Counted from the stretch's first letter, positions 16,640 through 64,000 are shown. The stretch: DNA of 64,000 nucleotides from Candidatus Dojkabacteria bacterium (GCA_012842045.1 DUTP01000005.1:77430-141429), one strand, 5' to 3'. A program made the numbers and translations. Notes: generated from the sequence alone by a model not told the origin.

Positions 16640-16677
16640 AACTATTGTATTCTAATAACTCAATATTTGCAATTAAT

Positions 16678-17886: not shown

Positions 17887-18357
17887 TTAGTTATTTACTA
17901 AATTAACTAAAATCACAGTCAGCGAGATTATAGCGATTATTATACTTACAAGCAAAAGTTTTGTTAAATGTTTTTCTCTGCTGTAGTTTCTAGATGCAAA
18001 AATAAATGTGGGGACTGAGATAGTAGTTGAGATAATAGGGTATAAGTAAATCATTTCCTTTGGTGTGAGTATATTTTTGGGGTTTATATAAAACTTGAAA
18101 ATAGGAAGAGATGTTGGAAGCGAATTAATATTTGTAGAAATAATATATACTTGATAGAGAGTTAAAATAAGAAAAGCCATTAAAGCAGCCCACACAAGAG
18201 GGTCTTTCAAAAACTTTACAACCTCCAACTTGATAACAACATCATCAAAGTCTTTTTTGATTTTATAGAATCTATTTTTAAAAGGCTCTTCTATCTCTAA
18301 ATCTAATTGTTTATATTGTTCCTCTTCTGTTTTTCCTTTTTTAGAAACTTTTTTCAT
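17887..18357 (-). CDS. Hypothetical membrane protein (156 aa)
   Basis: ORF with several TM helices, directly abutting the transferase gene. Confidence 0.4.
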   Translation of the reverse strand: MKKVSKKGKTEEEQYKQLDLEIEEPFKNRFYKIKKDFDDVVIKLEVVKFLKDPLVWAALMAFLILTLYQVYIISTNINSLPTSLPIFKFYINPKNILTPKEMIYLYPIISTTISVPTFIFASRNYSREKHLTKLLLVSIIIAIISLTVILVNLVNN

Positions 18358-18380
18358 AGCTGTATTATATCAAAAACACA

Positions 18381-21818: not shown

Positions 21819-21860
21819 TTGATTGATTATATCATTTAGAGCAGTATTTTCCTCTTTTAA

Positions 21861-22790
21861 CTATTTACACTCTAATGAATTCTCAACGATGACACATTCC
21901 ATATCTACAACACCTTTAGATGAGGATGTAGGTAATTGGATTTCTTTCTCATTAAAATACAGTTTGGTATTACTAATTCTTCCAGATATGATATGCAACT
22001 TGTTTTGAATTTCAAACTCTTTTTTAGTCGGTTCTAATACTTGTGCAATTACATTTACATCGTCAATATCAAGTTTTATCCAAGTAGCTGTCTCAAAAAT
22101 CTCTAAAACCACCTTATTAATCTTCACTTCTTCGGGTTTCTCTTCTTCATTTTTTGGAATATATGTAATATTTAATGTCTCAACAGTTTCAAGAATATTG
22201 TTGTTATTCTTCTGTGCTTTGATAGTAACAAGATTCCTTCCTTCTGTTAGTGTTATCTCTTTTTCAAAATTTCCTTCATCATCTACATCCGTACTGATAT
22301 CATTAATCTGGATAACGATGCCTTTTTCCGTCTTCCCTTTGATTGTAATCTTCTCGTTTTCCACTGTACTTTCCTTAGGTGGTTCAAATATTTCTAGCTT
22401 TGGAGGTGTTTGGAATTTGTATATTTGAGATATTATGTATCCTGCAATGAGTAATGTGAAAAGTGATACTAGAATGATAACAACAGTTTTTGGTGTGATG
22501 ACTAGTTTTTTTCTTTCTATTTTTTGTGGTGTTTTTTGTATCTCTTTCTCTGTACTTACAGGATTAGTTCTTCTGTAGAGTGCTAGGATTTTCTTAATAT
22601 CCAATCCTAGATACTTTGCATATATTTTGATGAAGCCTGTAAGGAAGACTTCTGATTGAAAAGGTGTGAATATGTTTTTTTCAATTGATTGGAGAAATCT
22701 TTTTTGTATTTTAGTATCAGCAGAGGCTTTCTCTAAGCTAATTCTTAATCTTTCTCTTTTGTTTTTTAATACTTCTCCTACTGTTATCAT
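21861..22790 (-). CDS. rodZ: RodZ-like protein (N-terminal HTH, TM, C-terminal beta-rich domain)
   Basis: XRE-type HTH (ITVGEVLKNKRERLRISLEKASADTKI), TM (VVIILVSLFTLLIAGYII), extracytoplasmic C-terminal domain. Confidence 0.55.
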   Translation of the reverse strand: MITVGEVLKNKRERLRISLEKASADTKIQKRFLQSIEKNIFTPFQSEVFLTGFIKIYAKYLGLDIKKILALYRRTNPVSTEKEIQKTPQKIERKKLVITPKTVVIILVSLFTLLIAGYIISQIYKFQTPPKLEIFEPPKESTVENEKITIKGKTEKGIVIQINDISTDVDDEGNFEKEITLTEGRNLVTIKAQKNNNNILETVETLNITYIPKNEEEKPEEVKINKVVLEIFETATWIKLDIDDVNVIAQVLEPTKKEFEIQNKLHIISGRISNTKLYFNEKEIQLPTSSSKGVVDMECVIVENSLECK

Positions 22791-49673: not shown

Positions 49674-50422
49674 TATTGTTATCAGAAAAAGAAGAGAAAT
49701 CTTTAATTTCTGGGTCAGGATATCTGTATATATTTTTACTGTTGAGGTAGGTCGTAATGTTTTACAGTGAAGATTACAGAATCCGTAGTTGCACATTTAA
49801 AACTGAATAGAAAGTAATTTCAATTAAGCAAATTAAGGGCGTATGGTGAATGCCTTGGCACAAAAGATCGATGAAGGACGTAGTAGATTGCGATAAGCTT
49901 CGGGTAGCTGTCAAACGAGCTTTGATCCGAAGATCTCCGAATGGAGTAATCCAACTGGGATTATGCCCAGTTATCATGCAGTGAATTCATAGCTGTATAG
50001 AAGAGCACGCAGGGAAGTGAAACCTCTCAGTACCTGCAGGAAAAGAGAACAAGAGTTTATTCCCCTAGTAGTGGCGAGCGAAAAGGGAAGAGCCTAAACC
50101 TATACTGTGTAAGAGGAATACGAAGCCTGATTCGCGTTGCGATGATGGCGGACTTGAACTCGCAGGTTGCTACTCGTGCAGTATGGGTGTTGTAAGAGTT
50201 AATGGAAGTGGTAGCAAACACTTCGAGGAGTTACAAAATTCCATTTTAGTAGAATATATCTGGAAAGATATGCCATAGAGAGTGATAGCCTCGTATACGA
50301 AAATGTGGAATCTCCTTTTTAATTTCTTAAGTACCACGGAACACGTGAGATTTTGTGGGAATCAGCCGATACCACTCGGCAAGGCTAAATATCTTTTGTG
50401 ACCGATAGCGAATTAGTATAGA

Positions 50423-50466
<44 letters not shown>

Positions 50467-51975
50467 ACTGAAACCATATGCTTACAAACAGTCGTAGCTG
50501 GTATATCCAGTGGCGGCGTGCCTATTGAAGAATGACCCAGTGAGTTCGTTGTGTGTGGCAAGGTTAACCATGTTTATTGGGGAGCCGAAGCGAAAGCGAG
50601 TCCGAATAGGGCACCTTGAGTCACATGCACGAGACCCGAAACCAGGTGATCCAGCCATGAGCAGAGTGAAGTTCTGAGAAATCAGGATGGAGGCTCGAAC
50701 TCGTTAATGTTACAAAATTATGAGATGACTTGTGGCTAGCGGTAACATGCCAAACGAACCTGGTAATAGCTGGTTCTCCCCGAAATAGCTTTAGGGCTAG
50801 CGTTGTGATTTAAGATGTGGGGGTAGAGCACTGATTGAATTTGGGGCCCGAAAGGGTACCCACTTCAGTCAAACTCCGAATACCATATTGAACATCACAG
50901 CAGTTAGAGCTAGGGATCTAAGTTCCTATGCTCAAGAGGGAAACAGCCCAGATCGTCAGATAAGGACCCTAAATTTTACCTTAGTGGGAAAGGAAGTGAA
51001 ATTTCTCAGACAGTTAGGAGGTTGGCTTAGAGGCAGCCATCCTTTAAAAAATGCGTAAAAGCTTACTAATCAAGAGATTTTGCACTTAAAATTAACGGGG
51101 CTGAAGGTAAATTCCGAAGCTGCGAATTTATACATACTTCGGTATGTATGGGTGGTAGGGGAGCGTTCTATACATGACCGACTTAGCAGTCGGTAATTAG
51201 CTGCGAAGGTGGCCCGTAAGGAGTTGCTGGAGCGTATAGAAGTGAGAATGCTGGGATGAGTAACGTAAAGCAGGTGAAAACCCTGCTCGCTGAATGTCTA
51301 AGGTTTCCATGGCTATGTCAGTCAACCATGGGTTAGTCGGTCCTAAGGAGAGGCTGAAAAGCGTATCCGATGGATAACAGGTTAATATTCCTGTACTACT
51401 GATATTTGAAATGGAGTATGAGGATTGAAGATGCAGGCCCCTTATTGGTTTGGGGTGTAAGCAACAAGAGAGCTCTTCTAGGAAAATCCGGAAGAGTGTT
51501 TCCACCTCGGTGGATGAACGCGAGTTGTGATACAAAGGTGACCTTCGGGAAGCCGATTTGTAGTACTTAATTCTCCAGGAAAAACTTCTATCTTTAACTA
51601 CTTCGGTAGTTAATAAAGTATTAGTAACCGTACTGCAATCCGACACCGGTAGACTGGTGTAAAAGCACCAAGGCGTACGAGTTATGCGTTGTTAAGGAAT
51701 TCGGCAAATTGACCCCGTAAGTTCGCAAGAAGGGGGACTCTACATCATAAGTTTTTTATTTGTGGTGATTAGAGTGGCACAGAATAGGGAAGAACGACTA
51801 GTTACCAAAACTACAGGCGCTTGCAAACTCGCAAGAGGATGTATAAGTGCTGACACCTGCCCAATGCCAGAAGGTTAAGATAATTTGTTAGCTCTCTGCT
51901 GGGTGCACTTCGGTGCCCTAGTGGTTGCGAAGCAAAGAGTCGAAGCCCTGGTCAATGGCGGCTGTAACTATTAGA

Positions 51976-53064
51976 CCTGGTGGGGTAGCAATACCCTGCC
52001 AGGAATTGTAGTTGTAAAATTTGGCTATATGCTGGAACGTCTGAGTATTTCTTGCTACTCATTAGATGATATTCAAATTGTAAGAAATTTGTAATCTCTA
52101 GTAGTTAAAATGTAAGAATGCAGATAATCAGCAGGAAAGATTTGTAATGTCAGATCCTATTTTTACAGAACAATTGAAATGGTTTCTCTCTGGATTTATC
52201 GATGGAGAGGGAAGCTTTTGTCTTAATATTAAGAGTAGAAAGGACTCTAGGTATGGTTTGAGAATAGAGCCAGCTTTTTATGTTTATCAACATGAAAAAA
52301 GTGTCCATATACTTGAATTGTTAAGAAAGATGTTTGGATGTGGAAGTATCCATAGAAAAACATCACCGTATAGCGTTTTTACGTATCAGATTTCTGGTAT
52401 AAAACCTTGCTATACCAAAGTTATTCCTTTCTTTGAGAAGTATCCGTTAATCGTAAAGTCTCAGACTTTTGAAATTTTCAAAAGAGCTGTTGATTTTATG
52501 TATAAAAAGCGACATCTAACTAAGGAAGGTTTTCTTTACTTGGTGGATTTAGTATATGAGATAAACCAACAAGGGAAAGGTAAAAAATGGGATAAAGAGA
52601 CAATAATTACAAAAATCCTCAGAGACTATACGCCAAACTCCTGATAGGGAGATGAGATAGTCCGACCTGTATGGCGACATACAGATGTATATAGAAATAT
52701 ATACACGAATCTAACAAACGTTGTTAGAGGGTAACACAAGTGAACGGTGGTAGATATATATCTACTGAGATATTTGCTAATCTCGGTTTGCTATCTAAAG
52801 ATATAGGGCCGTTTTAAAATCTAGCTATATGCTGGAACATCCTAAACGATACAAGTACCAAAGAGTAACAATCTTGTATTTATGGACAATCAGCAGGAAA
52901 GATCCAAGAAATTGGAAATCCTCAGAGGCTACATGCTAGACACAATATAATATTGTGAAGATATAGTCCGACCTCTACAGTGATGTAGAGAGATACACGA
53001 AGGTGTATCCGCCTAAAAATAGGTCTTCTAGTTTAATGAACACTAGATGGAAGTAACAGAAATG
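51976..53064 (+). mobile_element. Intron in 23S rRNA carrying a homing-endonuclease gene, with an internal degenerate endonuclease-less duplicate of the intron unit (boundaries uncertain by a few nt)
   Basis: rRNA homology breaks after ...CTATTAGA and resumes at CCTAAGGTAGCG (E. coli ~1917-1926 hotspot). The repeat blocks listed under the corresponding finding occur twice. Confidence 0.7.
52147..52644 (+). CDS. LAGLIDADG homing endonuclease (single-motif, 165 aa) encoded within the 23S intron
   Basis: LSGFIDGEGSF motif. Confidence 0.85.
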   Translation: MSDPIFTEQLKWFLSGFIDGEGSFCLNIKSRKDSRYGLRIEPAFYVYQHEKSVHILELLRKMFGCGSIHRKTSPYSVFTYQISGIKPCYTKVIPFFEKYPLIVKSQTFEIFKRAVDFMYKKRHLTKEGFLYLVDLVYEINQQGKGKKWDKETIITKILRDYTPNS

Positions 53065-53633
53065 CCTAAGGTAGCGTAATACCTTGTCACTTAATTAGTG
53101 ACTTGCATGAAAGGTGTAACGATTTTTCCTCTGTCTCGACAACGTGCTCGGTGAAATTGAAATGGCTGTGAAGATGCGGCCTACCTATACCAGGACAAAA
53201 AGACCCCGTGGAGCTTTACTTCAGCTTTGCATTGAGATAAGGTCTCGGATGTATAGAATATGTGGGAGACTATGAAGCAGTTTCGTCAGGAATTGCGGAG
53301 TCGACAGTGTAATACCACTCTTTTGATATTTTATTTCTAACAGTGTCCATTATCTGGATTCTAGACAGTGCATGGTGGGAAGTTTGACTGGGGCGGTTGC
53401 TTGCTAAAGAGTACCGCAAGCGCACTAAGGTCTCCTCAACCCGGATGGAAATCGGGTGAAGAGTGCATAAGCATAAGGAGGCTTTACTGTGAGGGAGACA
53501 TCCCGATCAGTTACGAAAGTAGGTTTAAGTGACCCTTTGGTTGCGCGTGGAAGCGCCATTGTTTAACGGAGATAAGCTACCCCGGGGATAACAGGCTAGT
53601 CTTGCCCGATAGTTCATATTGACGGCAAGGTTC

Positions 53634-53665
<32 letters not shown>

Positions 53666-53698
53666 ATTGGATAAGATCCCAAGGGTTGGACTGTTCGT

Positions 53699-53729
<31 letters not shown>

Positions 53730-54186
53730 CCGGCGTAAGCCAGGTCGGTCTCTATCCGGTATAGGCGTTGTATATTTGAGAGAATCATCCCCTAGTACGA
53801 AAGGATCGGGGAATGGTAACCTCTGGTCTACCAGCTGTTCTACCAAGAGCATAGCTGGGTAGCTAAGTTGCTTTCGGATAAGCACTGAAGGCATATAAGT
53901 GCGAAGCCAAACTCAAGATTAAATATACTTGTGTAGCTTGACTACATGGAAGGTCTGTGGAAGACTACCACATTGATAGGCTCTAAGTGTGAGTATAGTG
54001 ATATACTTAGCTGAGGAGTACTAATTGACCAAAAGCTTCTTTGATTTTTTATTACTTTCTGTTCGGTTTTGAGTGTACAATTACACTCTCGCTCTTTAGA
54101 ATTAAGTCCTGAGCTCTTCGAAAGAAGAGGTCAGGCAAAAGGTATTTATATCTATCTATATATATATAGATAGATAGATTCTTTTT

Positions 54187-54305
54187 GCCTGGCGATTGTA
54201 GTGGAGTGGAACTACCTGACTCCATCCCGAACTCAGAAGTAAAACACTCTAACGCCGAAAATACTTAAACCGCAAGGCTTTGGGAAGATAGGTTATTGCC
54301 AGGAC
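54187..54305 (+). rRNA. rrf: 5S ribosomal RNA
   Basis: GCCTGGCGATTGTAGTGGAG...CCGAACTCAGAAGT...TGCCAGGAC. Confidence 0.85.
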
Positions 54306-54321
54306 TTTTTGAATTTGAAAA

Positions 54322-54346
54322 CCCACTAGAAATAGTGGGTTTTTTG
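54322..54346 (+). terminator. rRNA operon terminator (CCCACTA-gaaa-TAGTGGG followed by TTTTTTG)
   Basis: Seen directly. Confidence 0.65.
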
Positions 54347-54393
54347 TTTTAAGTAAAGAGATACTTTTAACGGTTTGACGATATGAAAGATTT

Positions 54394-55125
54394 TTACATC
54401 CTTTTTAAAATTCCTAGCGTTTCTTCTGGGTTTTTAATAATATTGATTTGTATGTCCTTAAGAGATAGAAGGGGATAGTCATTTCCGTATTTATAAAACT
54501 CATCTCCTGTGAAAGTAACATTCGTTAGAGGTATATCTAACATCCTTGCTAGTCTTACTGTATTGTCGGCTTTATTTCTACCCTTAGCTACTATATCGAT
54601 AGTAGCTCTTCCTGTTATAAACATATCAAACCTCCCTTTAAAAATTTCATCAAGATTTCTCCTTATAGATAATCTCTTACTACCGTCAGGATCCCATTTT
54701 TCTCTTACCTCGTTGGAAGCATCTTCTCCTAAACAATCCATTGCGATATACCCTGCTTTCTCTGTGATAATAACTTTCTTCTTTATTCCTTTGAGAGCTT
54801 TGTAAATAATCTCTTTGTCTTTTGGTGGTACCTGCTCTGCCTCGTAGATTAAATTAAGAGTCTTTAGATTATAATTAAATATTTTGTTTCCATAGTAAGG
54901 GCATATAAAAAGGTTGTTGTTTGTAATAGTAATATTTTTTACAAATAATTGATTTAACTGTTTTAAAGTTCTTCCACTCATAATTGCAACGTAGTTCTCT
55001 TTGGTGAGTCTAGCAGTTTCAGAGAGGATATTATCCGATGGAACCGATACAGGTTGGGCGAGTGTGTTGTCATAGTCAAAGATGAATAATTTTTTCATAA
55101 TCAAGTATATCAAAAAAGAACACAC
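54394..55125 (-). CDS. HAD-superfamily (Cof-type, HAD-IIB) phosphatase
   Basis: N-terminal FIFDYDNTL (DxD motif I), a cap domain, and C-terminal GDEFYKYGNDYPL motif IV. Confidence 0.65.
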   Translation of the reverse strand: MCSFLIYLIMKKLFIFDYDNTLAQPVSVPSDNILSETARLTKENYVAIMSGRTLKQLNQLFVKNITITNNNLFICPYYGNKIFNYNLKTLNLIYEAEQVPPKDKEIIYKALKGIKKKVIITEKAGYIAMDCLGEDASNEVREKWDPDGSKRLSIRRNLDEIFKGRFDMFITGRATIDIVAKGRNKADNTVRLARMLDIPLTNVTFTGDEFYKYGNDYPLLSLKDIQINIIKNPEETLGILKRM

Positions 55126-55464
55126 CTAGAGAACCCTAGAGAGAAAACTCTAGGGTTTGGGTTGTTGTGCTAGTGGTAAATAGAAACGTTTACTGTTGGT
55201 TGTCAATCTGTTACGAAACAAGTCTTGTAGAGGACACGAAAAGAAGGGCTTCTTTTAAGAAGTGTAACATTGTGTTTTTCTGTGGCAAAACAGGGTGTTA
55301 TATAGCATGTAAAAAATTTTACATATTTTGACAACGGTGTTCGTTTCCATCGGAAATGTTTTGGCGGCAAGCCTTGAGGTGAGAGTAAAACAATTGTACA
55401 AAACCAGGCAAAGAGAGTGGTGTGATATAATGAAGATGTATAAATTTACAATCTTCTCCTAAAA

Positions 55465-56475
55465 ATGGAAATCAAAAGCTATGGGTCGGTCTGTATTGAG
55501 GGCGGAGATCAGCTTGGTAAGGGTGATGCAACTTCTAGAATAGTTAAAGAACTTGAGGGTCGTAGTGTGAATCTAACATTTTCTTCTTTCCCAATATATG
55601 CAACTCCAATGGGTTCAGTCATACGTTCTCTTTTAAAGGATGGTATCTCAGATGCAAAATTAGAGGGAATAGATACCTTAGATGTAAGGATGGCACTCTT
55701 TGCATTAAATAGATTAGAATTTATGGATGTATATCTAAGTGATAAGAAGTACCAGAATACAATGTTAATTCTTGACAGGAGTCCGTTTAGTAATGCTGTA
55801 TCCATAGGATATTGGCTGTCTTTACAGAAAAATTGGGATGAGAAGGAAGTGACAGGATATATTGACAGAGCAATGGATTTAGAATCTCTAATGATATCAG
55901 AATTGGGGTTGGATAGATGTGTTATTCAATTGAAATCAGAAGAGAGTGAATGGAGAGATATTAGAAAGAGAGAGACAGATCAGCATGAAAAAAAAGAAGT
56001 ACAAGAGAAGAGTAGTAAGGTGTATGAAATGTACAAAAAAACTGTAGGATCTGGTTGGCATCAGGTTGTCACTAAGAGAGATGATGGCTGGCGAGATAGA
56101 GATGATATTTGGAGTGATAATAAAAGAATTCTTAAGGATACATATGGGGATATGGATGATATTAAGGATGGTTTGAGGTACGATATTGGATTTAAAGAGA
56201 TTGTGGAGAATATATATCCTGATGCTGAGTATGATATGAGGCTATATGACACTTACGATGGTGCTATTAAAGAGAATGTAAAAGAGGTGATGTATGAAAG
56301 TGGGTTGAAACTTAGTAGTCAAGTAGCTGGTAGTTGTAGTAGTATCAAATTCTCAAATGGGGAGGTAAAAAGAGAGTTTAGAAGGCTGGTAGGTATAGTC
56401 CCTGATGTGGTGAGAGTGTATGAATATTTCTTAGGTAGGGAATTTATAGGCAAATTAAAGAAAGCATTAGTATGA
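55465..56475 (+). CDS. Thymidylate-kinase-fold protein with a degenerate P-loop and a ~165-aa acidic, Trp-rich C-terminal extension
   Basis: CIEGGDQLGKGDAT (EGxDxxGK, but with G in place of S/T after the Lys) and ILDRSPFSNAVSIGYW (a DRx-type motif). Confidence 0.45.
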   Translation: MEIKSYGSVCIEGGDQLGKGDATSRIVKELEGRSVNLTFSSFPIYATPMGSVIRSLLKDGISDAKLEGIDTLDVRMALFALNRLEFMDVYLSDKKYQNTMLILDRSPFSNAVSIGYWLSLQKNWDEKEVTGYIDRAMDLESLMISELGLDRCVIQLKSEESEWRDIRKRETDQHEKKEVQEKSSKVYEMYKKTVGSGWHQVVTKRDDGWRDRDDIWSDNKRILKDTYGDMDDIKDGLRYDIGFKEIVENIYPDAEYDMRLYDTYDGAIKENVKEVMYESGLKLSSQVAGSCSSIKFSNGEVKREFRRLVGIVPDVVRVYEYFLGREFIGKLKKALV

Positions 56476-57107
56476 TGAGTAGGAGGGATGTGGCTATCAA
56501 ATTACTATCTGAAGTAGAGAAACTCTTTCCAGAGGCTTCTACAGAGCTTGCAAATTGGAAGGATGACTTTCAGTTTTTAGTTGCTGTAATTCTTTCTGCA
56601 CAGACAACTGATATGCAGGTGAATAAGGTTACCCCAAAACTTTTCAGAAAATATCCAAGTGCTAGAAGATTGGCTAGTGCTAATATAAAAGATTTAGAGT
56701 ATACCCTAGGGGGTATTAATTACTTTAGAACAAAATCCAAGAATATTAAGAAGATGGCTAAGATTTTGGTTGAACAGTATGAAGGGCAGCCCCCTAAGTC
56801 GCTGAAGAAGCTTGTTGAACTGCCAGGGGTAGGTTACAAGACTGCAAATGTTTTTCTAAATGAGAGGTATAGAGCTAATGAGGGAATTGCTGTAGATACA
56901 CATGTTTTGAGGGTAGCTAGGGCGTATGGTCTTACTAAGAATATAGATCCAACTAAGGTAGCTCATGATTTAGAGAAACTCTACCCAAAGAAAGATTGGT
57001 ACAAGGTTAATTCGGTGTTTGTTTTGTATGGAAGGTATATCTTAAAGGCTAGAAAACCAGATATGGACAGGGTTGTCCTAAGAGAATATTTGGTGAATGG
57101 AAATTAA
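56472..57107 (+). CDS. nth: HhH-GPD base-excision DNA glycosylase (endonuclease III-like, no C-terminal Fe-S cysteine cluster)
   Basis: LVAVILSAQTTD...LPGVGYKTANVFL HhH-GPD motifs and a catalytic Asp in VDTHV. ATGA overlap with the upstream gene. Confidence 0.7.
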   Translation: MMSRRDVAIKLLSEVEKLFPEASTELANWKDDFQFLVAVILSAQTTDMQVNKVTPKLFRKYPSARRLASANIKDLEYTLGGINYFRTKSKNIKKMAKILVEQYEGQPPKSLKKLVELPGVGYKTANVFLNERYRANEGIAVDTHVLRVARAYGLTKNIDPTKVAHDLEKLYPKKDWYKVNSVFVLYGRYILKARKPDMDRVVLREYLVNGN

Positions 57108-57111
57108 AGCT

Positions 57112-60100
57112 TTATTTGTTCTCTTCTTGTTTTCTCTTGTATATGTTATATCCCAAGAGTATTGTTAATAGGACAATTAGGGCAATCAACCAGTAAACGT
57201 ATGTTGGTATTATTACTTTTTCTAGTTTTACATTTATCTCCATCTCTTCTTCTCCATCGCTGACTAGATTAATTTTCTTTTCAGCCCTATACCCATTATA
57301 TGAAATAATCATTGTATGTAAACCTGTTTCTAGATTTTCAAAATATACCTCTCCATTTTCATCAGTAATTCCTGTTCTAACATCTGAGTGTATTTCAACT
57401 GTTACACCTACAAGAGGTTCTCCAGACTCACTGTATATCTTTATCTTCAGACTCTTAGATTGAGTAGAGGAAGCAGGTTCCTTAGTTATGTCTAAAGTTT
57501 CCTCTGCAGCTTTAGTATTTTCTTCTTTTTCGTTTTCAATGATAGGGTTGATATATTTAGCAAACAGATTCTTTGGTTTTACAACAGGTTTGGGATCTAA
57601 TGGTGTGGGAATAATTGGTTTTGGAGGTTCTTCTTCATCTGGTTGTTCTGGTTCTTCCTCTTCTACAATATATGTCACAGAGTTATCAGTAGAGGTAGAT
57701 GCAACGTTATTATTCCCAGCTAAATCAGTTAATACATCAGCAGGAATAGTTGCTGTTACTGTTTCACCGTTTGTTAGGTTCTCAATCTCAACTTCATACT
57801 CTGTTTCACTAATTTTTGTAATACCTTTTACTTTAGCAGTTGTACTTCCAGATATTAGTATATCTTCATGAGTAAATGTATCTTCTTTTATTGGTTCAGA
57901 AAAGATAACGATGTATTTAATGGAGTTAATATCTGTTGGGTCAGGTTGAGTTGAGGATTGATTAATAGTTACAGAGGGTGGAATATTATCATATGTAATA
58001 GAGTTGTCAGTACTGGTTGATGCAATGTTTTTGTTTCCAGCAAGGTCTTCCACAGTATCAACAGGTAGGATGAGTAAGACTGTTTCTCCAGATACCATAC
58101 CATTTACATATGCTGTATATGTTGTGTCGTTTACATTTGTTAATAGTAATACTTTAGCTGTACTACTACCAGATATATTTAAATCATCTCTTGTAAATGT
58201 ATCTCCATTTATTGGTTCTGAGAAAATAATTGTAAATTTAATTATATCTTCATTAGTAGGATCAGCTTGGTCATCAGCTTGGTTTACTGTAACTGTTGGG
58301 GAAGTAGCATCATATGTTACTGAATTGTCAGTAGAAGTTGAGGCAGTATTCGTATTTCCAGCAGAATCTTCAACTCTATTAGCAGGTAGAGAGAGTGATA
58401 CAGTTTCTCCAGATAGCATACCCGTTACAACTGCAGTATATGTTGTGCTATTTACTGTTTGTAATTGTGATACAGTAGCAGTACTACTACCTGATATGAG
58501 TAGGTCTTCTTTGATAAAAGTGTCTCCATTAATTGGTTTGGAGAAGACAACTGTATATTTAATGGAGTTTATATTGGTAGGATCTACTTGGTCATTAGTT
58601 TGATTTACTGTAACAGTTGGTTTTTCTTTATCAAATGTTACTGCACTTGATTCTACTTCTGCAGTATTCCAGTTACCAAGAACATCTTGGTATGTATGAG
58701 CAGGGGAGAATACTGTAATGCTTGCCTTTTGATTCACTATGCCTGACACAGAGAGGGTATATTTCTTATTATTGATACTTGTTACCTCTGTAACTTTAGC
58801 TGTTGTAATAACACCATCTTCCTTAATCTTAAAACCATTTGCATCTAAGGTATCATCTTTTAGAGGTTCAGAGAATGTTGCATGGAAGATAATAGGTTGT
58901 TGATTAGTTGGATTTGGTTGTCCAGTTGCAGGTGTAATTGAAGTAATGTATGGAGGAGTAATATCAATTATTAGTTGGCCTGTGATTTCACTACTGTTTT
59001 CAGCAGAATCAGTAGCAGTTATTGTTAAATTGTATGTTTTTGTTGTTAGGTTTGTAATGTCTCCAGCAGATACAGTCCAAGTACCATTTTGATTGCTTGC
59101 AGCATTGATTATTTGTCCAGTTTCTACAATTTCAACTGTTACGGTAGCATTTTTATCATTTACCGTACCTGTAAGTTCAGGGGAGGGATTATTTGTACTT
59201 AAATCTTCATATCCTAATACTGGAGCGACGGTGTCTTTCAATAGCTCTTTGGTGTCTTCTCCTTTGTTTCCAACATCATCTGTCTGTGATGCATAGACAA
59301 CGACAGTACCATCGGGTTGTGCTGATAGGTCTAGTTCAGTACTCCAAGTATTATCGTTTTGACATTCTGCTACATATGGTTGTTCTGCTATAACTGTAAT
59401 GATATTGTTGTCTCCAAAAGTACATGTACCTCCTAGGGTATAGTGGGTTCTGTTTGCTCTGTTTATTGGTGCTGTGCTGGTTATGGAAATTGCTGGTGGG
59501 ATCCTGTCTATGATATATCCTTCTTTGGTTTCAGTAATACTGTTTCCTGCTTTGTCCTTGGCTGTTATAGCAAGGTTCCCTGATTCTATGATTGTTATTG
59601 TACAATTAATAATATTTTTATCTCCAGTATCAGCAGTACATTCCAAATTCTCAGCCATTCCTGTTGAACTTGCAGCTATCTCAATATCTGCAGGATATAT
59701 TTCAACAGCATCTGTTACAGTAATTGTAGTATCAGTAATATTATCCTTCTTCTTCTTGGTAGGAGCATTGATAGTTATTACAGGGTCAACAGTATCAATT
59801 GTATACATATGTGAGTTGTATCCTGTTGCTCTATTATTAGTATCTTCTGCTTGTATTATAATTGTTCCACTTTTATTAATATTTCTAATATTACAAGTTA
59901 CGTATGTAGTATATGGAGCATTATGTTCTCCATCTGCATCTGCACAATTTTCAAGAGTAACACCTTCAGATGCTGTTCCTGAGATTTCAATATTATCAAT
60001 CTCATGTCCTGCGATAGGGGCAGTAATTGTTACAGTTGAATCGCTAATTGGTTGGTTACTAAGAACAGTAGGGGCATTGAATACGACTTCTGGAGGGAAA

Positions 60101-63100
60101 ATGGTTTGCTTTTCAGTAGTATTGCCCACTAAGTCGTAGGCGATAACTGTAATGGTGTGTTGATTTTCCCCAGCGTAAAGTTCAAGAGTTCTTTGTATAA
60201 CACCAGGTTTTGTATACTCTATTTCATCAACTTTGTTTAATCCATCACTTCCAACATATTTAATCTCATACTTTTGCATTCCTACAGCATCAGTAGCTTC
60301 AAATTCAATAATTGGTTTGTCTATACCATATGTTAAAGTATCAATACTTGATGTTATAAAGGTTGGGGGAACCTGGTCAACAACATATCCATCTTTGAAA
60401 GCAGTTGAGCTTAGTCCAGCATTATCAGTAGCTTTCAAAACTAATCTTCCAGAAGTTTTTATACGAATAGTACAATTCATTTCTATATGGTTTTCTGGAT
60501 CAGGTGGATCAGCTTCATGTGGGAAGGGTGGAGTACATACAATATTATCCGCAGTAGCTATACTGGATTCATCTACTTCAACAGAAGCGATAGAGAAACG
60601 ATCGCTTACTTTAAATGTAGTATCAGTGATAGGGGCATTGGACATAGTAGTTCCTTGATTAATAGTGATTTCCGGAGGTAAATCATCAACATCAAGTACA
60701 GTAATAACGAAGATTTCTTCGGTATATAGATTAGTTGAGTCCGTAGCTCTTACTCTAATTGTATATTTATTTTTATCATCAGGGTCAGCTGTTCCTGTTG
60801 GATTTTCATAGTCTGGAGGTTCTAGGAAAGCTAAAGCACCAGTAGTAGGATTAAGAGCAAACTTAGAGTTATCTCCACTTCCTTCACCAGATACAAGAGA
60901 GTAGATTATAGCTGTTTCATCAGTTGCAGAGATTGTGCCGACTTCTGTAGTGTTTTCTTCGATTTCATCTGGAAATAGTTTTAAGTTTTGTGGTGGACAG
61001 TTTTGACCAGCATCATTAATTCGCCAATTTTTAGGCGCACTAGTTAAAGTATTCCTAGCATCTCCACCTTGACAATAATAAACACCAACGGCATCAAGAT
61101 ATAAATTTGGTTTTACTGTTTTAGTACTCCAAGAATTTAATAATTTGTCATAATTATATGGATGCAGAGCAGTATAATTAAGAAAATAACTAATTCTTCC
61201 TACATTACCTATATTCCAATTCGAGATATCTTGATCAAAGGAAGTAGCATTGTTGAACATATACATCATATTTGTGACATTAGATGTATCCCAACTACCT
61301 ATTGGTTGATTGAATGAAGTAGCTGCACTGAACATATATGACATATCTTGGACATTACCAGTTTGCCAGCCACTGATATCTTGATTAAATCCAGAAGCAC
61401 GATCAAACATACGCGTCATATTTGTAACACTTGCCGTATTCCAATTGTCACCAAACGGTTGGTTAAACTCATAAGCACGGTCAAACATATATGACATATT
61501 TGAAACTTTAACAGTATTCCAGTTTAATGGCTTACTCTCATCACCAGGCTCAGCGCCATTGTTAAAAACATTGGCATTTTGAAACATATATGCCATGCTT
61601 TCAACATTTGCTGTATTCCAATCACCAATATATTGATTAAAACTTCTTGCCTGTCTAAACATATCTGCCATAGTCTTGACATTTGCTGTAGTCCACTTAG
61701 GCCCAAATGCTTGATTAAAGTCTCTTGCTACAAACATGGCATACATATTATCAACCTTTGATGTATCCAAATCTAATGGATTATTACTGCCTCCGGGAAC
61801 ATCGCCGTTATTAAAAACCGTAGCTCCGTTGAACATGTGCATCATGCTAGTAACTTTTCCGGTATTCCAGCTGTTAAGGTTCTGATTGAAAGAACTAGCA
61901 TTCATAAACATGCCGAGCATACCAGTTACATTGCTCGTATTCCAAGAGCCGATGTTTTGATTAAATGCTTTAGCATTTAAAAACATATATGTTACATACT
62001 TAAGACTTTTAGTGTCCCAATTCATGGTATTGCTACTTTCGCCTGGTGCTTCACCGTTATTGAAAACGGTTGCACCTTGAAACATGTTAGACATATTAGT
62101 AACCACACCAGTATCCCAACCACCAATATATTGATTAAACGCACTAGCCTCTCGAAACATAAGAGACATGCTTTCAACCTTTGTTGTAACCCAATCCATA
62201 GTATTTTGACTTTCACCTGGTGCTTCACCATTATTAAAGGCTGTGGCTTGTCTAAACATGTTAGACATATTAGTAACCGCACCAGTATTCCAACCACCGA
62301 TGTTTTGATTGAAAACTGAGGCCTGATTAAACATAGAGCCCATATTAATAACCTCACTAGTGTTCCATCCACCAATATTCTGATTGAATACAGTCGCACC
62401 AGCAAACATGGCATACATATCTTTAACGCTACCAGTCTGCCAGTTATTTATGTCTTGATTGAATGAAGAAGCTTTATTAAACATCTGTTTCATATTAGTT
62501 ACACTGCTAGTATTCCATTCTAGGGGTTTAGTGCTTGCACCTGGAGTTTCACCATTATTAAATTTATCTGCCTCAAAAAACATGTATGCCATACTTTCAA
62601 CTGCACCAGTTTTCCATTTGCCGATATATTGATTAAAGTTTGTGGCACGGTAAAACATTGAATTCATAGTAGTAACTGCACTTGTATCCCAATTACCGAT
62701 AGGGGCATTAAAATTTGTGGCATCTACAAATGTATTAGCCATATTTTTAACACCACTAGTATTCCAACTATCCATAGATCCATTACCAGTGAAGTTTGTA
62801 GCACCTTGAAAAGTAGAAGACATATCTGTAACTTGTGATAAATCAGGGGCATCAGTAGCAGTTAACTGCATGTTCACCATCCCTTTAAAAGCAGATCCAA
62901 AACTTGACCATGGGATAGTACCCCATTGTTTAATCTCTAATAGTTTAGCTTTTTCATCATCAGCTAAATCAGGGGAATAGAAACGGAGTGGGGCAGTAGA
63001 TCTAACGCAAACATCGTATGTACCTGGTGTCGGATAATTATGTGTAGCTAAGCTAGTGTAAAACAGTTCATAATCATCATCACAATTCCAAGATACTTCA

Positions 63101-63327
63101 TAAGTATCGGTAGCTACTTTCAAAAATCTTAAAGTGACTTTATTTGGTTCAGTTGCTCCATCTACATCAGTTTGCCATGTGGTTACAAATAGGTCGGAAG
63201 AGTAGGCATGAGTTTTAAAACCTTTGTTTTTAACTAAAAAGGTTGTAAAACCTACAACTAACAAAAGAGTACTAATGAAAAAGAAAATTCTCTTTACATG
63301 TGGATATTGGACAGAATTTTTAATCAT
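57112..63327 (-). CDS. Giant surface protein (2071 aa): N-terminal signal/TM, DUF285-type repeats, cadherin-like domain, Ig-like domains, three tandem ~95-aa repeats, C-terminal TM anchor
   Basis: Many FxxA(T/S)xFNQxIGxWNT(S/G)xVTNMxxMF repeats; LDYE...VLDVDD cadherin motif; repeats ...AGNTNTASTSTDNSVTYD...; C-terminus YVYWLIALIVLLTILLGYNIYKRK. Confidence 0.8.
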   Translation of the reverse strand: MIKNSVQYPHVKRIFFFISTLLLVVGFTTFLVKNKGFKTHAYSSDLFVTTWQTDVDGATEPNKVTLRFLKVATDTYEVSWNCDDDYELFYTSLATHNYPTPGTYDVCVRSTAPLRFYSPDLADDEKAKLLEIKQWGTIPWSSFGSAFKGMVNMQLTATDAPDLSQVTDMSSTFQGATNFTGNGSMDSWNTSGVKNMANTFVDATNFNAPIGNWDTSAVTTMNSMFYRATNFNQYIGKWKTGAVESMAYMFFEADKFNNGETPGASTKPLEWNTSSVTNMKQMFNKASSFNQDINNWQTGSVKDMYAMFAGATVFNQNIGGWNTSEVINMGSMFNQASVFNQNIGGWNTGAVTNMSNMFRQATAFNNGEAPGESQNTMDWVTTKVESMSLMFREASAFNQYIGGWDTGVVTNMSNMFQGATVFNNGEAPGESSNTMNWDTKSLKYVTYMFLNAKAFNQNIGSWNTSNVTGMLGMFMNASSFNQNLNSWNTGKVTSMMHMFNGATVFNNGDVPGGSNNPLDLDTSKVDNMYAMFVARDFNQAFGPKWTTANVKTMADMFRQARSFNQYIGDWNTANVESMAYMFQNANVFNNGAEPGDESKPLNWNTVKVSNMSYMFDRAYEFNQPFGDNWNTASVTNMTRMFDRASGFNQDISGWQTGNVQDMSYMFSAATSFNQPIGSWDTSNVTNMMYMFNNATSFDQDISNWNIGNVGRISYFLNYTALHPYNYDKLLNSWSTKTVKPNLYLDAVGVYYCQGGDARNTLTSAPKNWRINDAGQNCPPQNLKLFPDEIEENTTEVGTISATDETAIIYSLVSGEGSGDNSKFALNPTTGALAFLEPPDYENPTGTADPDDKNKYTIRVRATDSTNLYTEEIFVITVLDVDDLPPEITINQGTTMSNAPITDTTFKVSDRFSIASVEVDESSIATADNIVCTPPFPHEADPPDPENHIEMNCTIRIKTSGRLVLKATDNAGLSSTAFKDGYVVDQVPPTFITSSIDTLTYGIDKPIIEFEATDAVGMQKYEIKYVGSDGLNKVDEIEYTKPGVIQRTLELYAGENQHTITVIAYDLVGNTTEKQTIFPPEVVFNAPTVLSNQPISDSTVTITAPIAGHEIDNIEISGTASEGVTLENCADADGEHNAPYTTYVTCNIRNINKSGTIIIQAEDTNNRATGYNSHMYTIDTVDPVITINAPTKKKKDNITDTTITVTDAVEIYPADIEIAASSTGMAENLECTADTGDKNIINCTITIIESGNLAITAKDKAGNSITETKEGYIIDRIPPAISITSTAPINRANRTHYTLGGTCTFGDNNIITVIAEQPYVAECQNDNTWSTELDLSAQPDGTVVVYASQTDDVGNKGEDTKELLKDTVAPVLGYEDLSTNNPSPELTGTVNDKNATVTVEIVETGQIINAASNQNGTWTVSAGDITNLTTKTYNLTITATDSAENSSEITGQLIIDITPPYITSITPATGQPNPTNQQPIIFHATFSEPLKDDTLDANGFKIKEDGVITTAKVTEVTSINNKKYTLSVSGIVNQKASITVFSPAHTYQDVLGNWNTAEVESSAVTFDKEKPTVTVNQTNDQVDPTNINSIKYTVVFSKPINGDTFIKEDLLISGSSTATVSQLQTVNSTTYTAVVTGMLSGETVSLSLPANRVEDSAGNTNTASTSTDNSVTYDATSPTVTVNQADDQADPTNEDIIKFTIIFSEPINGDTFTRDDLNISGSSTAKVLLLTNVNDTTYTAYVNGMVSGETVLLILPVDTVEDLAGNKNIASTSTDNSITYDNIPPSVTINQSSTQPDPTDINSIKYIVIFSEPIKEDTFTHEDILISGSTTAKVKGITKISETEYEVEIENLTNGETVTATIPADVLTDLAGNNNVASTSTDNSVTYIVEEEEPEQPDEEEPPKPIIPTPLDPKPVVKPKNLFAKYINPIIENEKEENTKAAEETLDITKEPASSTQSKSLKIKIYSESGEPLVGVTVEIHSDVRTGITDENGEVYFENLETGLHTMIISYNGYRAEKKINLVSDGEEEMEINVKLEKVIIPTYVYWLIALIVLLTILLGYNIYKRKQEENK
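57690..58600. repeat. Three diverged tandem ~285-bp repeats (Ig-like domain repeats) inside the giant gene
   Basis: Repeated protein segments, and similar antisense ORF translations at 57488..57871 and 58004..58603. Confidence 0.6.
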
Positions 63328-63360
63328 AACCTCAAATTTGTAGCATACTTACTTTATCTA

Positions 63361-64000
63361 TCAGTTTTTATCTTCTTTCTTCTTCTTGTATATGAAGTAT
63401 CCAAAGAGTATTACCAGTAGCACAATCAATACTATCCACCAGTAGTTTGGTTTACTTACTTTTTCTAACTGTACATTAATCTCTATCTCTGCTTCCTCTT
63501 CATTGTCATTGGTTAAGTCAATTGTTCTTTCATCCTTCTGTCCTTTGTATGAGACAATCATGGTATGTGAACCAATATCTACATTCTCAAAGTATGCTTC
63601 TCCATTCTTGTCTGTAATCTCTGTTCTAACTTTAGAATGTATCTCAACAGTTGCACCTTTGATAGGTTTCTTTGATTTGTCATATACCTTTACTCTTAGA
63701 TTTTTGTATAGAGTGGGGTAGGTAGTCTTTTCTACTGTCTTAGAGGCTTCCTCTTCGGTTTGTTCTTCTGTAGTAGTCTCTTCTTCCTCCTCAATTATTG
63801 GATTAAGGAATTTATTATATGGATTTCTTGGTTTTACAATGGGTTTTGAAATAATTGGTTTGGGTGGCTCTGGTACTTCTGGCTCTTTCTCTTCTACAAA
63901 ATACTTCACACTATTATCAGTAGAGGTACTGGCTGGGTTTCTATTTCCTGCTAGGTCTTCTACCATATTAGCGGGTAGGGAAAGTGTTACTGTTTCTCCT
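63361..64000 (-). CDS. Second giant surface-protein paralog; only the C-terminal ~210 aa lie in the window (N-terminus beyond the window end)
   Basis: The C-terminal module aligns with that of the 57112..63327 protein (...STSTDNSV.Y...TVEIHS.VRT.ITD.NGE.YFEN......I.LEKV + TM + KKKE). The frame stays open to position 64000. Confidence 0.7.
   Translation of the reverse strand, partial: GETVTLSLPANMVEDLAGNRNPASTSTDNSVKYFVEEKEPEVPEPPKPIISKPIVKPRNPYNKFLNPIIEEEEETTTEEQTEEEASKTVEKTTYPTLYKNLRVKVYDKSKKPIKGATVEIHSKVRTEITDKNGEAYFENVDIGSHTMIVSYKGQKDERTIDLTNDNEEEAEIEINVQLEKVSKPNYWWIVLIVLLVILFGYFIYKKKKEDKN

Follow-up and report, generated by a model that had tools for sequence, protein, structure and literature searches.

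A giant DUF285 and Ig-like repeat protein, a candidate surface fibre of Candidatus Dojkabacteria

Our analysis of a 64,000-nt stretch of DNA from a Candidatus Dojkabacteria bacterium (hereafter, the window) identified a genuine, intact gene for a 2071-aa protein. We consider it reasonably likely that this protein is a fibrillar, adhesin-like cell-surface protein with a type I membrane anchor, its array evolving by recombination at module boundaries. The surface-protein architecture proposed by an earlier, sequence-only reading of the window (DUF285 repeats, a cadherin-like domain, Ig-like modules and a common anchor) was recovered in our searches. The protein class is already known, and database pipelines label the orthologs; the NCBI name for those in Dojkabacteria is "BspA family leucine-rich repeat surface protein". 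Literature searches returned no paper on Dojkabacteria surface proteins and no known Dojkabacteria host.

The locus and its assembly

The gene and its upstream surroundings are placed as follows.

57112..63327, minus strand: giant DUF285/Ig-like surface protein gene, 2071 codons plus stop, ATG start (ORF list, translation)
63328..63360, minus strand: intergenic spacer of 33 nt, its sequence nearly the same in contigs L009 and L002
63361..64000, minus strand: 3' end of the upstream paralog, 212 codons plus stop, cut by the window end (translation, Pfam)

The sequence-only reading had described two co-oriented genes 33 nt apart, the first complete at 2071 aa, with a common C-terminal module of linker, beta domain, TM segment and K-rich tail, and all of this holds. 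Its description of the second protein as huge goes beyond the 212 codons that the window contains. The part of the upstream paralog in the window encodes the end of a Big_12 repeat, a linker, CarboxypepD_reg, TM and a KKKKEDKN tail. The C-terminal modules of the two window genes share 59% identity over 206 aligned residues, and their DNA matches at 71–80% over 54–131 nt. The encoded part of the upstream paralog has 85% identity to the C-terminus of a 1445-aa DUF285 protein in L002 and 87% to a 1285-aa fusion protein in L009. The spacer ends in GAGGTT before the ATG, with GAGG as ribosome-binding site, and a scan of its 33 nt found no promoter- or terminator-like site; the array paralogs are probably co-transcribed. 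The giant gene closes a tandem array, two to four paralogs long, whose members have a common anchor module; related arrays comprise genes for 971, 1445 and 2024 aa in L002 and four ORFs in L004, which bears out the tandem paralogy claimed earlier. Genes for an HhH-GPD protein and a dTMP-kinase-like protein follow the array in L002, L004 and the source window alike. The loci related to the array belong to Candidatus Dojkabacteria and the 23S rRNA of the source genome contains a group I intron, in agreement with the bacterium being a member of the CPR.

It is extremely improbable that the gene is a pseudogene or an assembly artefact, that is, a long ORF created by collapsed or mis-joined repeats. 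The gene is repeat-rich, and the independent Logan assembly contig L001 stops 162 nt upstream of the gene start, inside the paralogous C-terminal module, which such an origin could explain. However, L001 is 100% identical to window positions 53700–63489 (9790 nt), a match that takes in the whole gene and its downstream flank, so that the inconsistent repeat assembly against which the sequence-only reading had cautioned was not observed. Intact orthologs of 1934–2073 aa with the same neighbours occur in four other contigs, dN/dS values are 0.11–0.27, and the AF2 models are confident. Given the identity of L001 and a 2073-aa ortholog from another sample with 96% identity, we conclude that the gene is not a collapsed-repeat artefact.

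Long antisense ORFs inside the gene (e.g., 59474–60139, 221 aa, kept in L002 and L003) are not taken to be overlapping genes. They had no Pfam match and all lie in one frame, in which a stop requires a Tyr, His or Gln codon after a pyrimidine-ending codon, and the stalk has few such combinations; that the ORFs are conserved is a consequence of the ~95% nt identity in this region.

Domain architecture

From the N-terminus to the C-terminus, the protein is divided into the following segments.

63199..63327, minus strand: N-terminal leader, aa 1–43 (sequence; conserved in orthologs and paralogs)
62917..63198, minus strand: N-terminal beta-sandwich cap, aa 44–137 (AF2: six strands, pLDDT 88–97)
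61144..62916, minus strand: DUF285/PARCEL repeat head, aa 138–728 (PF03382, TIGR02167, unit parse, AF2)
60988..61143, minus strand: head C-terminal cap, aa 729–780 (helices in AF2 secondary structure)
60682..60987, minus strand: cadherin-like domain, aa 781–882 (PF00028, phmmer, Foldseek, alignment A2)
58960..60681, minus strand: six beta-sandwich stalk modules, aa 883–1456 (AF2, Foldseek, Big_13, module similarities)
58627..58959, minus strand: diverged Big_5/Big_12-like module, aa 1457–1567 (Big_5 20.5 bits, sub-threshold)
57673..58626, minus strand: three tandem Big_12 Ig-like repeats, aa 1568–1885 (TRF, repeat families D4/D5, Big_12 match)
57454..57672, minus strand: Pro/Glu/Lys-rich low-complexity linker, aa 1886–1958 (sequence; common to the paralog)
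57211..57453, minus strand: membrane-proximal CarboxypepD_reg beta-sandwich, aa 1959–2039 (PF13620; kept in the paralog)
57115..57210, minus strand: C-terminal TM helix and basic tail, aa 2040–2071 (sequence)

In the leader, a basic n-region (K, H, K, R) is followed by a 19-residue hydrophobic core and a conserved T-H-A-Y-S. It probably acts as a signal anchor or as a Sec signal peptide, putatively cleaved; since the hydrophobic core is long, the N-terminus could stay in the membrane as a second anchor. A lipobox is absent, the first Cys being at aa 82. This residue pairs with Cys107 in the N-terminal cap, which has weak PKD similarity.

The head contains 22 DUF285 units of 25–33 aa, consistent with the more than 20 copies counted earlier; 19 units begin with W-x-T and three are degenerate. 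The base unit is 25 aa long (consensus WnTxxVtnMxxMFxxAtxFNqxigx), and six units extend to 33 aa, each with an 8-residue NNG-x-PG loop; a 75-nt DNA repeat family underlies the region. PF03382 matched in 7 stretches (529.5 bits against a cutoff of 25, E=7.8e-162), and TIGR02167 scored 135.1 bits against 30 (E=3.6e-40). Structure prediction, proposed earlier as a check of the repeat region, gave an AF2 head model with pLDDT 90.5, mostly 85–97 across the DUF285 units. The model resembles predicted viral 'BspA family LRR surface proteins' (E=1.6e-33, 620 columns, TMq 0.55), and viral 'Leucine rich repeat 5' proteins are distantly similar, in predicted fold only. A solved structure for the DUF285 part was not found among the best 50 PDB Foldseek matches of the head model, all of which were cadherin-type, so only its cadherin domain can be matched. 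Below the units, the C-terminal cap has a conserved Cys752-Cys777 pair and invariant Y/C/C/P positions in alignment A2.

The cadherin-like domain named in the sequence-only reading stands as a fold, while its family assignment is borderline. PF00028 Cadherin scored 29.2 bits against a gathering threshold of 28.8 when aa 781–890 were scanned alone, a marginal result, and was missing from the whole-protein Pfam list at E<=0.01. In array gene 1 paralogs in relatives, the same family scored 43–46 bits. The best PDB matches of the head model were protocadherin/cadherin EC domains (Foldseek E 3e-4, probability 1.00), with TMt 0.52–0.58 to single-domain targets, and phmmer searches of PDB sequences gave weak matches of the domain to protocadherins (E about 2e-3). 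The domain's motif reads PDYE...VLDVDD; E, DYE, ATD and DVDDLPP motifs, which appear to be of the Ca2+-binding type (E/DxE/DxD/DxNDN), are conserved in alignment A2.

The six following stalk modules start at aa 883, 986, 1077, 1180, 1276 and 1367. A Cys pair is conserved in four of the six, and the last is a Big_13 domain (E=9.5e-11). The AF2 stalk model is all-beta (pLDDT 87.2), and its Foldseek matches include titin Ig I65-70, the GhpA neck and base, S-layer proteins and adhesin extender repeats. The module at aa 1457–1567 shares about 35% identity with the three repeats after it. These three Big_12 copies confirm the tandem repeats reported earlier, but their period is 321 bp/107 aa by TRF (starts at aa 1568, 1675 and 1782) and not ~285 bp/95 aa; they are 52–69% identical to one another in amino acids and 60–73% in nucleotides. 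With ten Ig-like modules and one cadherin-like domain, the stalk has eleven beta-sandwich modules.

Membrane anchor and its occurrence in other proteins

CarboxypepD_reg (PF13620) scored 50.1 bits against a cutoff of 32.3. The TM helix that follows reads P-x-Y-V-Y-W-LIALIVLLTILLGYNIY and precedes a basic tail, KRKQEENK. Helix and tail are strongly conserved between the two paralogs of the window and among relatives, including a G and a Y inside the helix. No LPXTG, NPXTG or LAXTG motif occurs in the last 46 residues. A hidden sorting signal in the same residues was sought in NCBIfam and rejected: no CTERM-type family matched, and TIGR01167 LPXTG_anchor aligned at model positions 8–33 (the TM plus tail part) in the paralog only. 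All 12 Cys residues of the giant protein fall into six conserved intradomain pairs, which argues for an extracellular location. Together with the leader, the C-terminal TM helix and the basic tail, these pairs are features that point to surface display.

An exhaustive profile search with the C-terminal module returned 1657 proteins at E<=1e-3, many matching at their extreme C-terminus, and fn3-LysM often stands directly before CarboxypepD_reg. The few matches that bear organism names are all from CPR lineages (Dojkabacteria, Woesebacteria, Daviesbacteria). We note that a word-indexed search with the same module gave only three fragment proteins and overlooked obvious full-length relatives; the census is therefore that of the profile search. 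In other CPR proteins the anchor carries glycosidase-like, phosphoesterase, DUF2961 and LamG passengers, i.e., enzymes or lectin-like domains. Because the anchor bears enzymes there, surface display alone does not imply adhesion.

Variation within and between genomes

The sequence-only reading had regarded such repeat-rich paralogs as especially prone to recombination that alters size or antigenicity. Our comparisons agree with this between genomes but not for rapid change within one. The relatives compared are metagenome contigs, and three flanking genes plus part of the 23S rRNA served as the baseline for genome divergence. Orthologs differ in length by 25, 33, 50, 83 and 108 aa, always within the DUF285 region and by whole units. 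The 1285-aa protein of L009 joins residues 1 to about 795 of array gene 1 (99% nt identity) to the last 482 residues of array gene 2, in frame, at a CCACCAG-type Pro-codon microhomology. Comparisons of the window with L009, L002 and L003 gave stalk dS values of 0.19, 0.20 and 0.21 and head dS values of 0.04, 0.64 and 0.98, while dS in flanking genes was 0.7–2.0; the partial 23S rRNA of the window and L002 shares 97.6% identity. Judging from these sequence comparisons, recombination between genomes is evident in the unit indels, the one fusion and the differing dS of head and stalk. The pattern suggests a mosaic history in which parts were swapped between related species and head and stalk had separate histories. 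Positive selection on the head was not supported by its dN/dS of 0.12–0.27, and dN/dS is <=0.27 in every segment.

Repeats and tandem paralogs do exist here, and it could be argued that frequent recombination among DUF285 units, 321-bp repeats and paralogs quickly generates antigenic or size variants within a population. The whole-unit indels and the array-gene fusion in one relative would fit such a process, as would the break of L001 in the paralogous C-terminal module, where the assembler met ambiguity. We nevertheless regard this as quite improbable. The DUF285 units are merely 60–76% identical in nucleotides, and the paralogous C-terminal modules have diverged at the protein and DNA levels given above. 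The longest exact direct repeat in 57112–64000 is 25 nt, followed by one of 19 nt, and rapid intragenomic variation is thus not supported. Repeat scans of the region found no simple-sequence tracts and no inverted repeats >=30 nt, no recombinase lies near the gene, and two independent assemblies gave the same 2071-aa gene. The repeats in the source genome are old and diverged, and a fast switching mechanism is not indicated.

Comparison with known surface proteins

DUF285/PARCEL proteins such as the LppQ/LppC-type lipoproteins of the Mycoplasma mycoides cluster have the same 25-residue amphipathic repeat in variable number and are likewise membrane-targeted. Shuffling and lateral transfer have been proposed for PARCEL repeat proteins (Roske et al. 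2010, PMC2996958), which matches the evolution seen here. For dyad symmetry of the coding DNA, a further PARCEL trait (PMC2996958), the picture is mixed: the region has no long palindromes or inverted repeats >=30 nt, and short inverted k-mers show a weak excess, being 2–4 times commoner than in codon shuffles (at k=10, 11 observed vs 2.7 +/- 2.2). Mycoplasma DUF285 lipoproteins have an N-terminal lipid anchor, whereas the giant protein has a C-terminal TM helix and no lipobox. It is also ~ten times larger than typical mycoplasma members and, unlike them, has a cadherin/Ig-like stalk under the repeat domain. The score for the Mbov_0838 family (NF045896) was 346.8 bits, below its cutoff of 500.

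The BspA-type giants of Bacteroidota (DUF285-PKD-T9SS) follow the same plan, in which an N-terminal solenoid head and Ig-like/PKD spacers lead to a sorting or anchor element at the C-terminus, and the DUF285 head is common to Bacteroidota 'BspA family leucine-rich repeat surface proteins' at 28–47% identity. These giants end in a T9SS Por_Secre_tail (PF18962) and have PKD spacers, whereas the protein studied here ends in CarboxypepD_reg, TM helix and basic tail and has a stalk of Big_12/Big_13 and cadherin-like modules. Tannerella forsythia BspA itself belongs to the LRR_5 (PF13306) family. Neither PF13306 nor PF18962 was among the whole-protein Pfam matches at E<=0.01.

Ca2+-stabilised repeat adhesins and Aureispira GhpA belong to diderms and leave the cell through T1SS or T9SS. 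Both the giant adhesins (extender repeats, PDB 6xi3) and GhpA (PDB 9flp/9fly/9flw) form tandem beta-sandwich rods, as the stalk is predicted to do. The Foldseek matches of the stalk to these rods (E 1e-10 to 1e-11) are generic to Ig-like arrays, and NF033510 Ca_tandemer was sub-threshold (42.5 bits vs cutoff 50).

Fibrillar adhesins, a class defined by Monzon, Lafita and Bateman 2021 (PMC8286594), include Cna/Sdr proteins and internalins. Those of monoderms have an N-terminal adhesive domain, an Ig-like stalk and a C-terminal anchor (PMC8286594), the same polarity as in our protein, in which the head is putative. The repeated rigid-domain stalk that characterizes the class corresponds to the eleven beta-sandwich modules, whose models matched Ig-array folds. 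The DUF285 head lies at the terminus away from the anchor, a position that would suit an adhesive role. In contrast to Gram-positive fibrillar adhesins, the protein lacks an LPXTG or other sortase motif and has a plain TM helix after CarboxypepD_reg. The main text of PMC8286594 makes no mention of DUF285, CarboxypepD_reg or Patescibacteria.

Proposed function

A fibrillar adhesin-like protein of this kind could be built as follows. Guided by the leader, the chain would cross the membrane by Sec, and the C-terminal TM helix and cytoplasmic Lys/Arg tail would hold it as a type I protein, a topology predicted from sequence features. The CarboxypepD_reg beta-sandwich would adjoin the membrane, and the ~70-residue Pro/Glu-rich linker would probably span the wall; that this wall is of peptidoglycan is suggested by MurJ, which is encoded in the window. 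The eleven Ig-like and cadherin-like modules may form a rod, with the 22-unit DUF285 (PARCEL, 'BspA-like LRR') domain, capped on both sides, as a putative ligand-binding head at the distal end. Fully extended, the fibre might measure ~50–60 nm, as roughly estimated from generic domain sizes. Its array would evolve by gain and loss of whole head units, by fusion of neighbouring paralogs at Pro-codon linkers and by swaps of head and stalk segments among related species, under purifying selection. The candidate ligand would most likely be the surface of a partner or host cell.

We think it unlikely that the protein is instead a structural part of the envelope or coat, whether S-layer-like or a spacer fibre, or a feeding device that captures polymers or particles, rather than a host-specific adhesin; its DUF285 head would then bind environmental polysaccharide or protein, or self-associate. 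The passengers of the anchor module in other CPR proteins would suit such a role. The module also has weak similarity (E=8e-6) to a portion of Kustd1514, the anammox S-layer protein, S-layer proteins are among the fold matches of the stalk, and the stalk is very conserved. Yet the Kustd1514-type S-layer glycoprotein family (NF052345) scored 23.4 bits against a cutoff of 1400, with only the CarboxypepD_reg part aligning, and the order of head, stalk and anchor is that of fibrillar adhesins (PMC8286594). Moreover, the head is swapped between lineages while the stalk stays constant, a pattern more in keeping with a specificity determinant than with a lattice subunit.

A bolder version of the adhesin reading, which we consider possible but rather unlikely, is that the locus is a host-specificity cassette exchanged laterally, in which a wholesale-replaced DUF285 head on a near-constant stalk and anchor is displayed via a CPR anchoring cassette. 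The stalk dS of about 0.2 across species, against 0.7–2.0 in neighbouring genes, could reflect such lateral exchange. The anchoring cassette, consisting of fn3-LysM or a Pro-linker, CarboxypepD_reg, TM helix and basic tail, occurs in several CPR lineages and would be so far undescribed. The unusual conservation of its TM helix could mean that it has a dedicated partner or sorting machinery.

CPR bacteria are believed to live on other cells, and the contact molecules are described as largely unknown beyond the type IV pili of Saccharibacteria (bioRxiv 10.1101/2024.11.25.624915). The locus encodes a specific and well-modelled candidate surface fibre of Dojkabacteria, whose putative binding head and stalk appear to have separate evolutionary histories across species. 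The anchor module is common to many CPR surface proteins and could serve to list their displayed proteome. If the exchange of host-specificity cassettes is real, partner or host range would move between species with the exchanged head.

A giant surface-protein gene in a tandem array

The far end of the window carries two co-oriented genes on the minus strand.

57112-63327 (-): complete ORF of 2071 codons (giant gene); product with DUF285 head, Ig-like stalk and C-terminal anchor
63328-63360: spacer of 33 nt, with GAGGTT at its end, immediately 5' of the ATG
63361 to the window end (-): 3' end of the upstream paralog, 212 residues within the window

The ORF list and the spacer sequence bear out the arrangement proposed in the sequence-only reading, i.e., two genes 33 nt apart of which the first is complete at 2071 aa. 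The window end cuts the second gene, so the huge size given for it in that reading, and any DUF285 content, lie outside what the window shows. The two genes are likely co-transcribed, since no promoter-like or terminator-like site was found in the spacer. The repeat region was also found to be consistently assembled. An independent Logan contig (L001; run SRR2420280) matches window positions 53700-63489 with 100% identity over 9790 nt, and a different run yielded a 2073-aa ortholog that is 96% identical to the 2071-aa protein; together these argue that the giant gene is real and its assembly consistent. We note that L001, a short-read assembly, ends at window position 63489, within the upstream paralog's C-terminal module, the sole part of the locus in which the paralogs resemble each other closely enough to mislead an assembler.

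The remaining window genes are housekeeping genes (LeuRS, RNase J, FtsK, DnaK, MurJ), and the presence of MurJ implies a peptidoglycan wall. The window also holds an rRNA operon, whose 23S gene (49822-54044) is 4223 nt long compared with a 2925-nt model and contains a group I intron (78.8 bits, Rfam) and a LAGLIDADG_1 homing endonuclease ORF (E=3e-20); the sub-intervals 52762-52990 and 52147-52644 are listed with these two elements. CPR bacteria commonly carry introns in their rRNA genes.

A back-translated search, taking one genome per species, recovered syntenic contigs of Candidatus Dojkabacteria (L002, JAGPFQ010000002; L003, DATERJ010000006; L004, JBMNHC010000001). In these relatives the giant gene is the last of a tandem array and is followed, as in the window, by genes for an HhH-GPD glycosylase and a dTMP-kinase-like protein. 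The L002 array comprises three genes:

971 aa: Bact_surface_Ig-like, LamG-like, cadherin, anchor
1445 aa: DUF285, Ig-like domains, anchor
2024 aa: ortholog of the giant gene of the window

The upstream fragment of the window shares 85% identity with the C-terminal end of the 1445-aa protein. The L004 array has four ORFs (1012, 452, 2120 and 1946 aa), the first two of which appear to be a single split gene (5406-10001), owing to a frameshift or else to an error in long reads. The closest L004 relative of the giant gene (within 9998-22237) is the 2120-aa gene and not the 1946-aa gene adjacent to HhH-GPD, so that positional orthology is not conserved. The stretch separating the giant gene from HhH-GPD varies as well: it spans 4 nt in the window (57108-57111), a 100-aa ORF that by eye is XRE-type HTH-like in L002 (18803-19105) and L003, and a 281-aa ORF without Pfam match in L009 (16235-17080), a further related contig.

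Domain architecture

The DUF285 family was matched in seven stretches of the complete protein (E=7.8e-162, 529.5 bits, Pfam), and TIGR02167, the PARCEL or 26-residue surface-protein repeat, scored 135 bits (NCBIfam). Parsing the sequence gave 22 units between aa 138 and 728 (consensus WnTxxVtnMxxMFxxAtxFNqxigx), in agreement with the more than 20 copies claimed earlier; 16 are 25-26 aa long and the other six are 33 aa, with an additional loop containing NNG-x-PG. In an AF2 model of the head (aa 44-885; mean pLDDT 90.5), a six-stranded sandwich at the N-terminal end is followed by a long stretch with one very short strand per 10-13 residues (a solenoid-type pattern), a helical cap bearing the invariant Cys pair C752/C777, and a final beta-sandwich whose Foldseek matches are protocadherin EC domains. 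The top 50 Foldseek PDB matches of this model were all cadherin or protocadherin EC domains, with none to the DUF285 part, and a PDB sequence search returned weak protocadherin matches alone. Among predicted viral structures, a 'BspA family LRR surface protein' of a jumbo phage could be aligned with the DUF285 part (620 columns, E=1.6e-33, TMq 0.55, rmsd 4.4 A). Proteins of giant viruses aligned with it too, and the alignment with 'Leucine rich repeat 5' proteins was weaker. The BFVD models closest to the DUF285 head belong to jumbo phages (Aeromonas phage D3, Klebsiella phage N1M2) and to giant viruses (Aureococcus anophagefferens virus, Megaviridae), in keeping with the mobilome distribution that has been proposed for PARCEL repeats.

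The cadherin-like domain noticed earlier has conserved E/DYE/ATD/DVDDLPP motifs and the Foldseek fold match in its favor, but its sequence score is marginal (29.2 vs 28.8 bits); it appeared only when aa 781-890 were scanned alone, and the whole-protein Pfam list lacks it. Big_12 and Big_13 were matched in the complete protein. The three tandem repeats of the stalk are present, but their size is 107 aa (321 bp; starts at aa 1568, 1675 and 1782), not the ~95 aa (285 bp) first given; they share 52-69% amino acid and 60-73% nucleotide identity, and a fourth, diverged copy (35% identical) lies directly ahead of them at aa 1457. An AF2 model of aa 883-1570 is all beta (pLDDT 87.2). Its best matches are to titin Ig I65-I70, to GhpA (neck and base), the grappling-hook protein of Aureispira, to S-layer proteins and to one extender repeat of an adhesin; they point to a generic rod built from Ig-like domains. 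The 12 cysteines all pair within domains, and these six pairs, conserved among homologs, fit an extracellular protein.

Four long antisense ORFs in one shared frame (+) lie within the giant gene (57488-57871, 58004-58603, 59474-60139, 60233-60658), and one of 221 aa is open in L002 and L003 too. They have no Pfam matches and are probably not genes; the scarcity of Tyr, His and Gln codons in the stalk and the high nucleotide identity of the region explain the pattern.

A probable C-terminal surface anchor in several CPR lineages

Both window genes end in a common module of linker, CarboxypepD_reg, TM helix and Lys-rich tail, 59% identical between them. This confirms the shared C-terminus seen in the sequence-only reading and identifies its beta domain as CarboxypepD_reg (aa 1961-2034 of the complete protein, Pfam). 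There is no LPXTG-type motif at the C-terminus, and the LPXTG anchor model matches only the TM-plus-basic part, in the paralog. The giant protein also has neither a lipobox nor a T9SS domain, and no NCBIfam sorting-signal family matches the module.

We searched 1.84 billion representative proteins exhaustively with a profile built from an alignment (A4) of the module, and obtained 1657 proteins at E<=1e-3, of which 458 reach E<=1e-10. Part of these match the Big_12 repeat tail; many others, of 200-2000 aa, carry a single stretch of CarboxypepD_reg, TM helix and tail at the extreme C-terminus (e.g., P0171, P0184, P0195, P0208, P0253). Named proteins with the module belong to Candidatus Dojkabacteria, Woesebacteria and Daviesbacteria, and their passengers are of enzyme or lectin-like type; across the matches examined the passengers include LamG/DUF2341, glycosyl-hydrolase-like, metallophosphoesterase, DUF2961, SdrD_B and disaggregatase repeats. 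The module would seem to serve several CPR lineages as a general anchor for surface display. In several anchor proteins, fn3 and LysM immediately precede CarboxypepD_reg, where the window protein has its Pro/Glu-rich linker; by analogy, this shared position supports placing the linker within the cell wall.

No sign of fast variation within the genome, probable exchange between lineages

The 75-nt DUF285 units are 60-76% identical to one another, the longest exact direct repeats in 57112-64000 are 25 and 19 nt, and the locus contains no inverted repeats of at least 30 nt and no simple-sequence tracts. On these grounds a high-frequency switching mechanism is not indicated, and the repeats inside this genome are, judged from sequence, old.

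Between genomes, the ortholog lengths vary (2071, 2073, 2024, 1934 and 1946 aa), and the gaps of 25, 33, 50, 83 and 108 aa all lie within the DUF285 region and each equal whole units. L009 has only two array genes, one encoding a 1285-aa protein whose first ~795 residues share 99% nucleotide identity with L002 gene 1 and whose last 482 residues share 91% with the end of L002 gene 2. Comparison of L009 6110-9967 with L002 5400-12688 shows ~3.46 kb deleted and a whole DUF285 head lost, with a run of Pro codons (microhomology) at the junction, right after the cadherin domain. The 1285-aa gene is evidently an in-frame fusion of array genes 1 and 2. The upstream fragment matches this fusion protein at 87%, about equal to its match with the 1445-aa protein.

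Synonymous divergence (NG86) was mosaic along the gene, and fourfold-site and blastn segment identities agreed.

Synonymous divergence (dS) between the window and related contigs; flanking genes are HhH-GPD, the kinase-like gene and a hydrolase.
L009: head 0.04; cadherin 0.04; stalk 0.19; linker and anchor 0.45; flanking genes 0.7-2.0
L002: head 0.64; cadherin 0.24; stalk 0.20; linker and anchor 0.35; flanking genes 1.0-1.4
L003: head 0.98; cadherin 0.42; stalk 0.21; linker and anchor 0.35

L009 and L002 share 98.3% nucleotide identity upstream of the array, 91% within it and <78% downstream, and the 23S rRNA of the window is 97.6% identical to that of L002. Since gene and flank have no sequence in common at their boundary, a misjoin falling exactly there is unlikely. 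Read most simply, the data indicate that Dojkabacteria lineages with far more diverged surrounding genes have traded stalk and head segments through homologous recombination; the baseline for this divergence consists of three genes and a partial rRNA, and the relatives are all metagenome contigs. With dN/dS at 0.11-0.27 in every segment, selection has been purifying throughout. As to the recombinational variation suggested earlier, the data support modular exchange between lineages and speak against fast variation within this genome.

Comparison with known surface proteins

The class to which the giant protein belongs is already recognised. Its repeat motif is that of the DUF285/PARCEL group, whose arrays vary in unit number and occur in proteins targeted to the membrane, in a scatter of bacteria, protists and viruses, and for which lateral transfer and intragenomic shuffling were inferred (Roske et al., PMC2996958); of the 'dyad symmetry' described there, the giant gene shows a modest excess of short inverted k-mers alone. 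Its overall design is shared with the fibrillar adhesins of monoderm bacteria, in which the head is distal, the stalk Ig-like and the anchor C-terminal (PMC8286594), whereas its CarboxypepD_reg-TM-basic-tail anchor is absent from the known anchors listed in the methods of that study. For the orthologs in Dojkabacteria, the NCBI pipeline already uses the name 'BspA family leucine-rich repeat surface protein'. By the profile and motif searches applied, the giant protein does not belong to the LRR_5 BspA proteins, LPXTG proteins, Mycoplasma lipoproteins, Ca_tandemer proteins or the anammox S-layer family. Large DUF285 proteins number in the thousands; Bacteroidota are a notable source, and the proteins there terminate in a T9SS domain. 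Three features set the giant protein apart: its anchor type, its place in a CPR bacterium and its apparent modular exchange between species.

We found no literature on the hosts or surface proteins of Dojkabacteria; attachment to host or partner cells is a plausible candidate role for the giant protein. What our analysis adds is a corrected anatomy, evidence that favors modular exchange between lineages over fast variation within the genome, and recognition of a recurrent CPR surface-anchor module.
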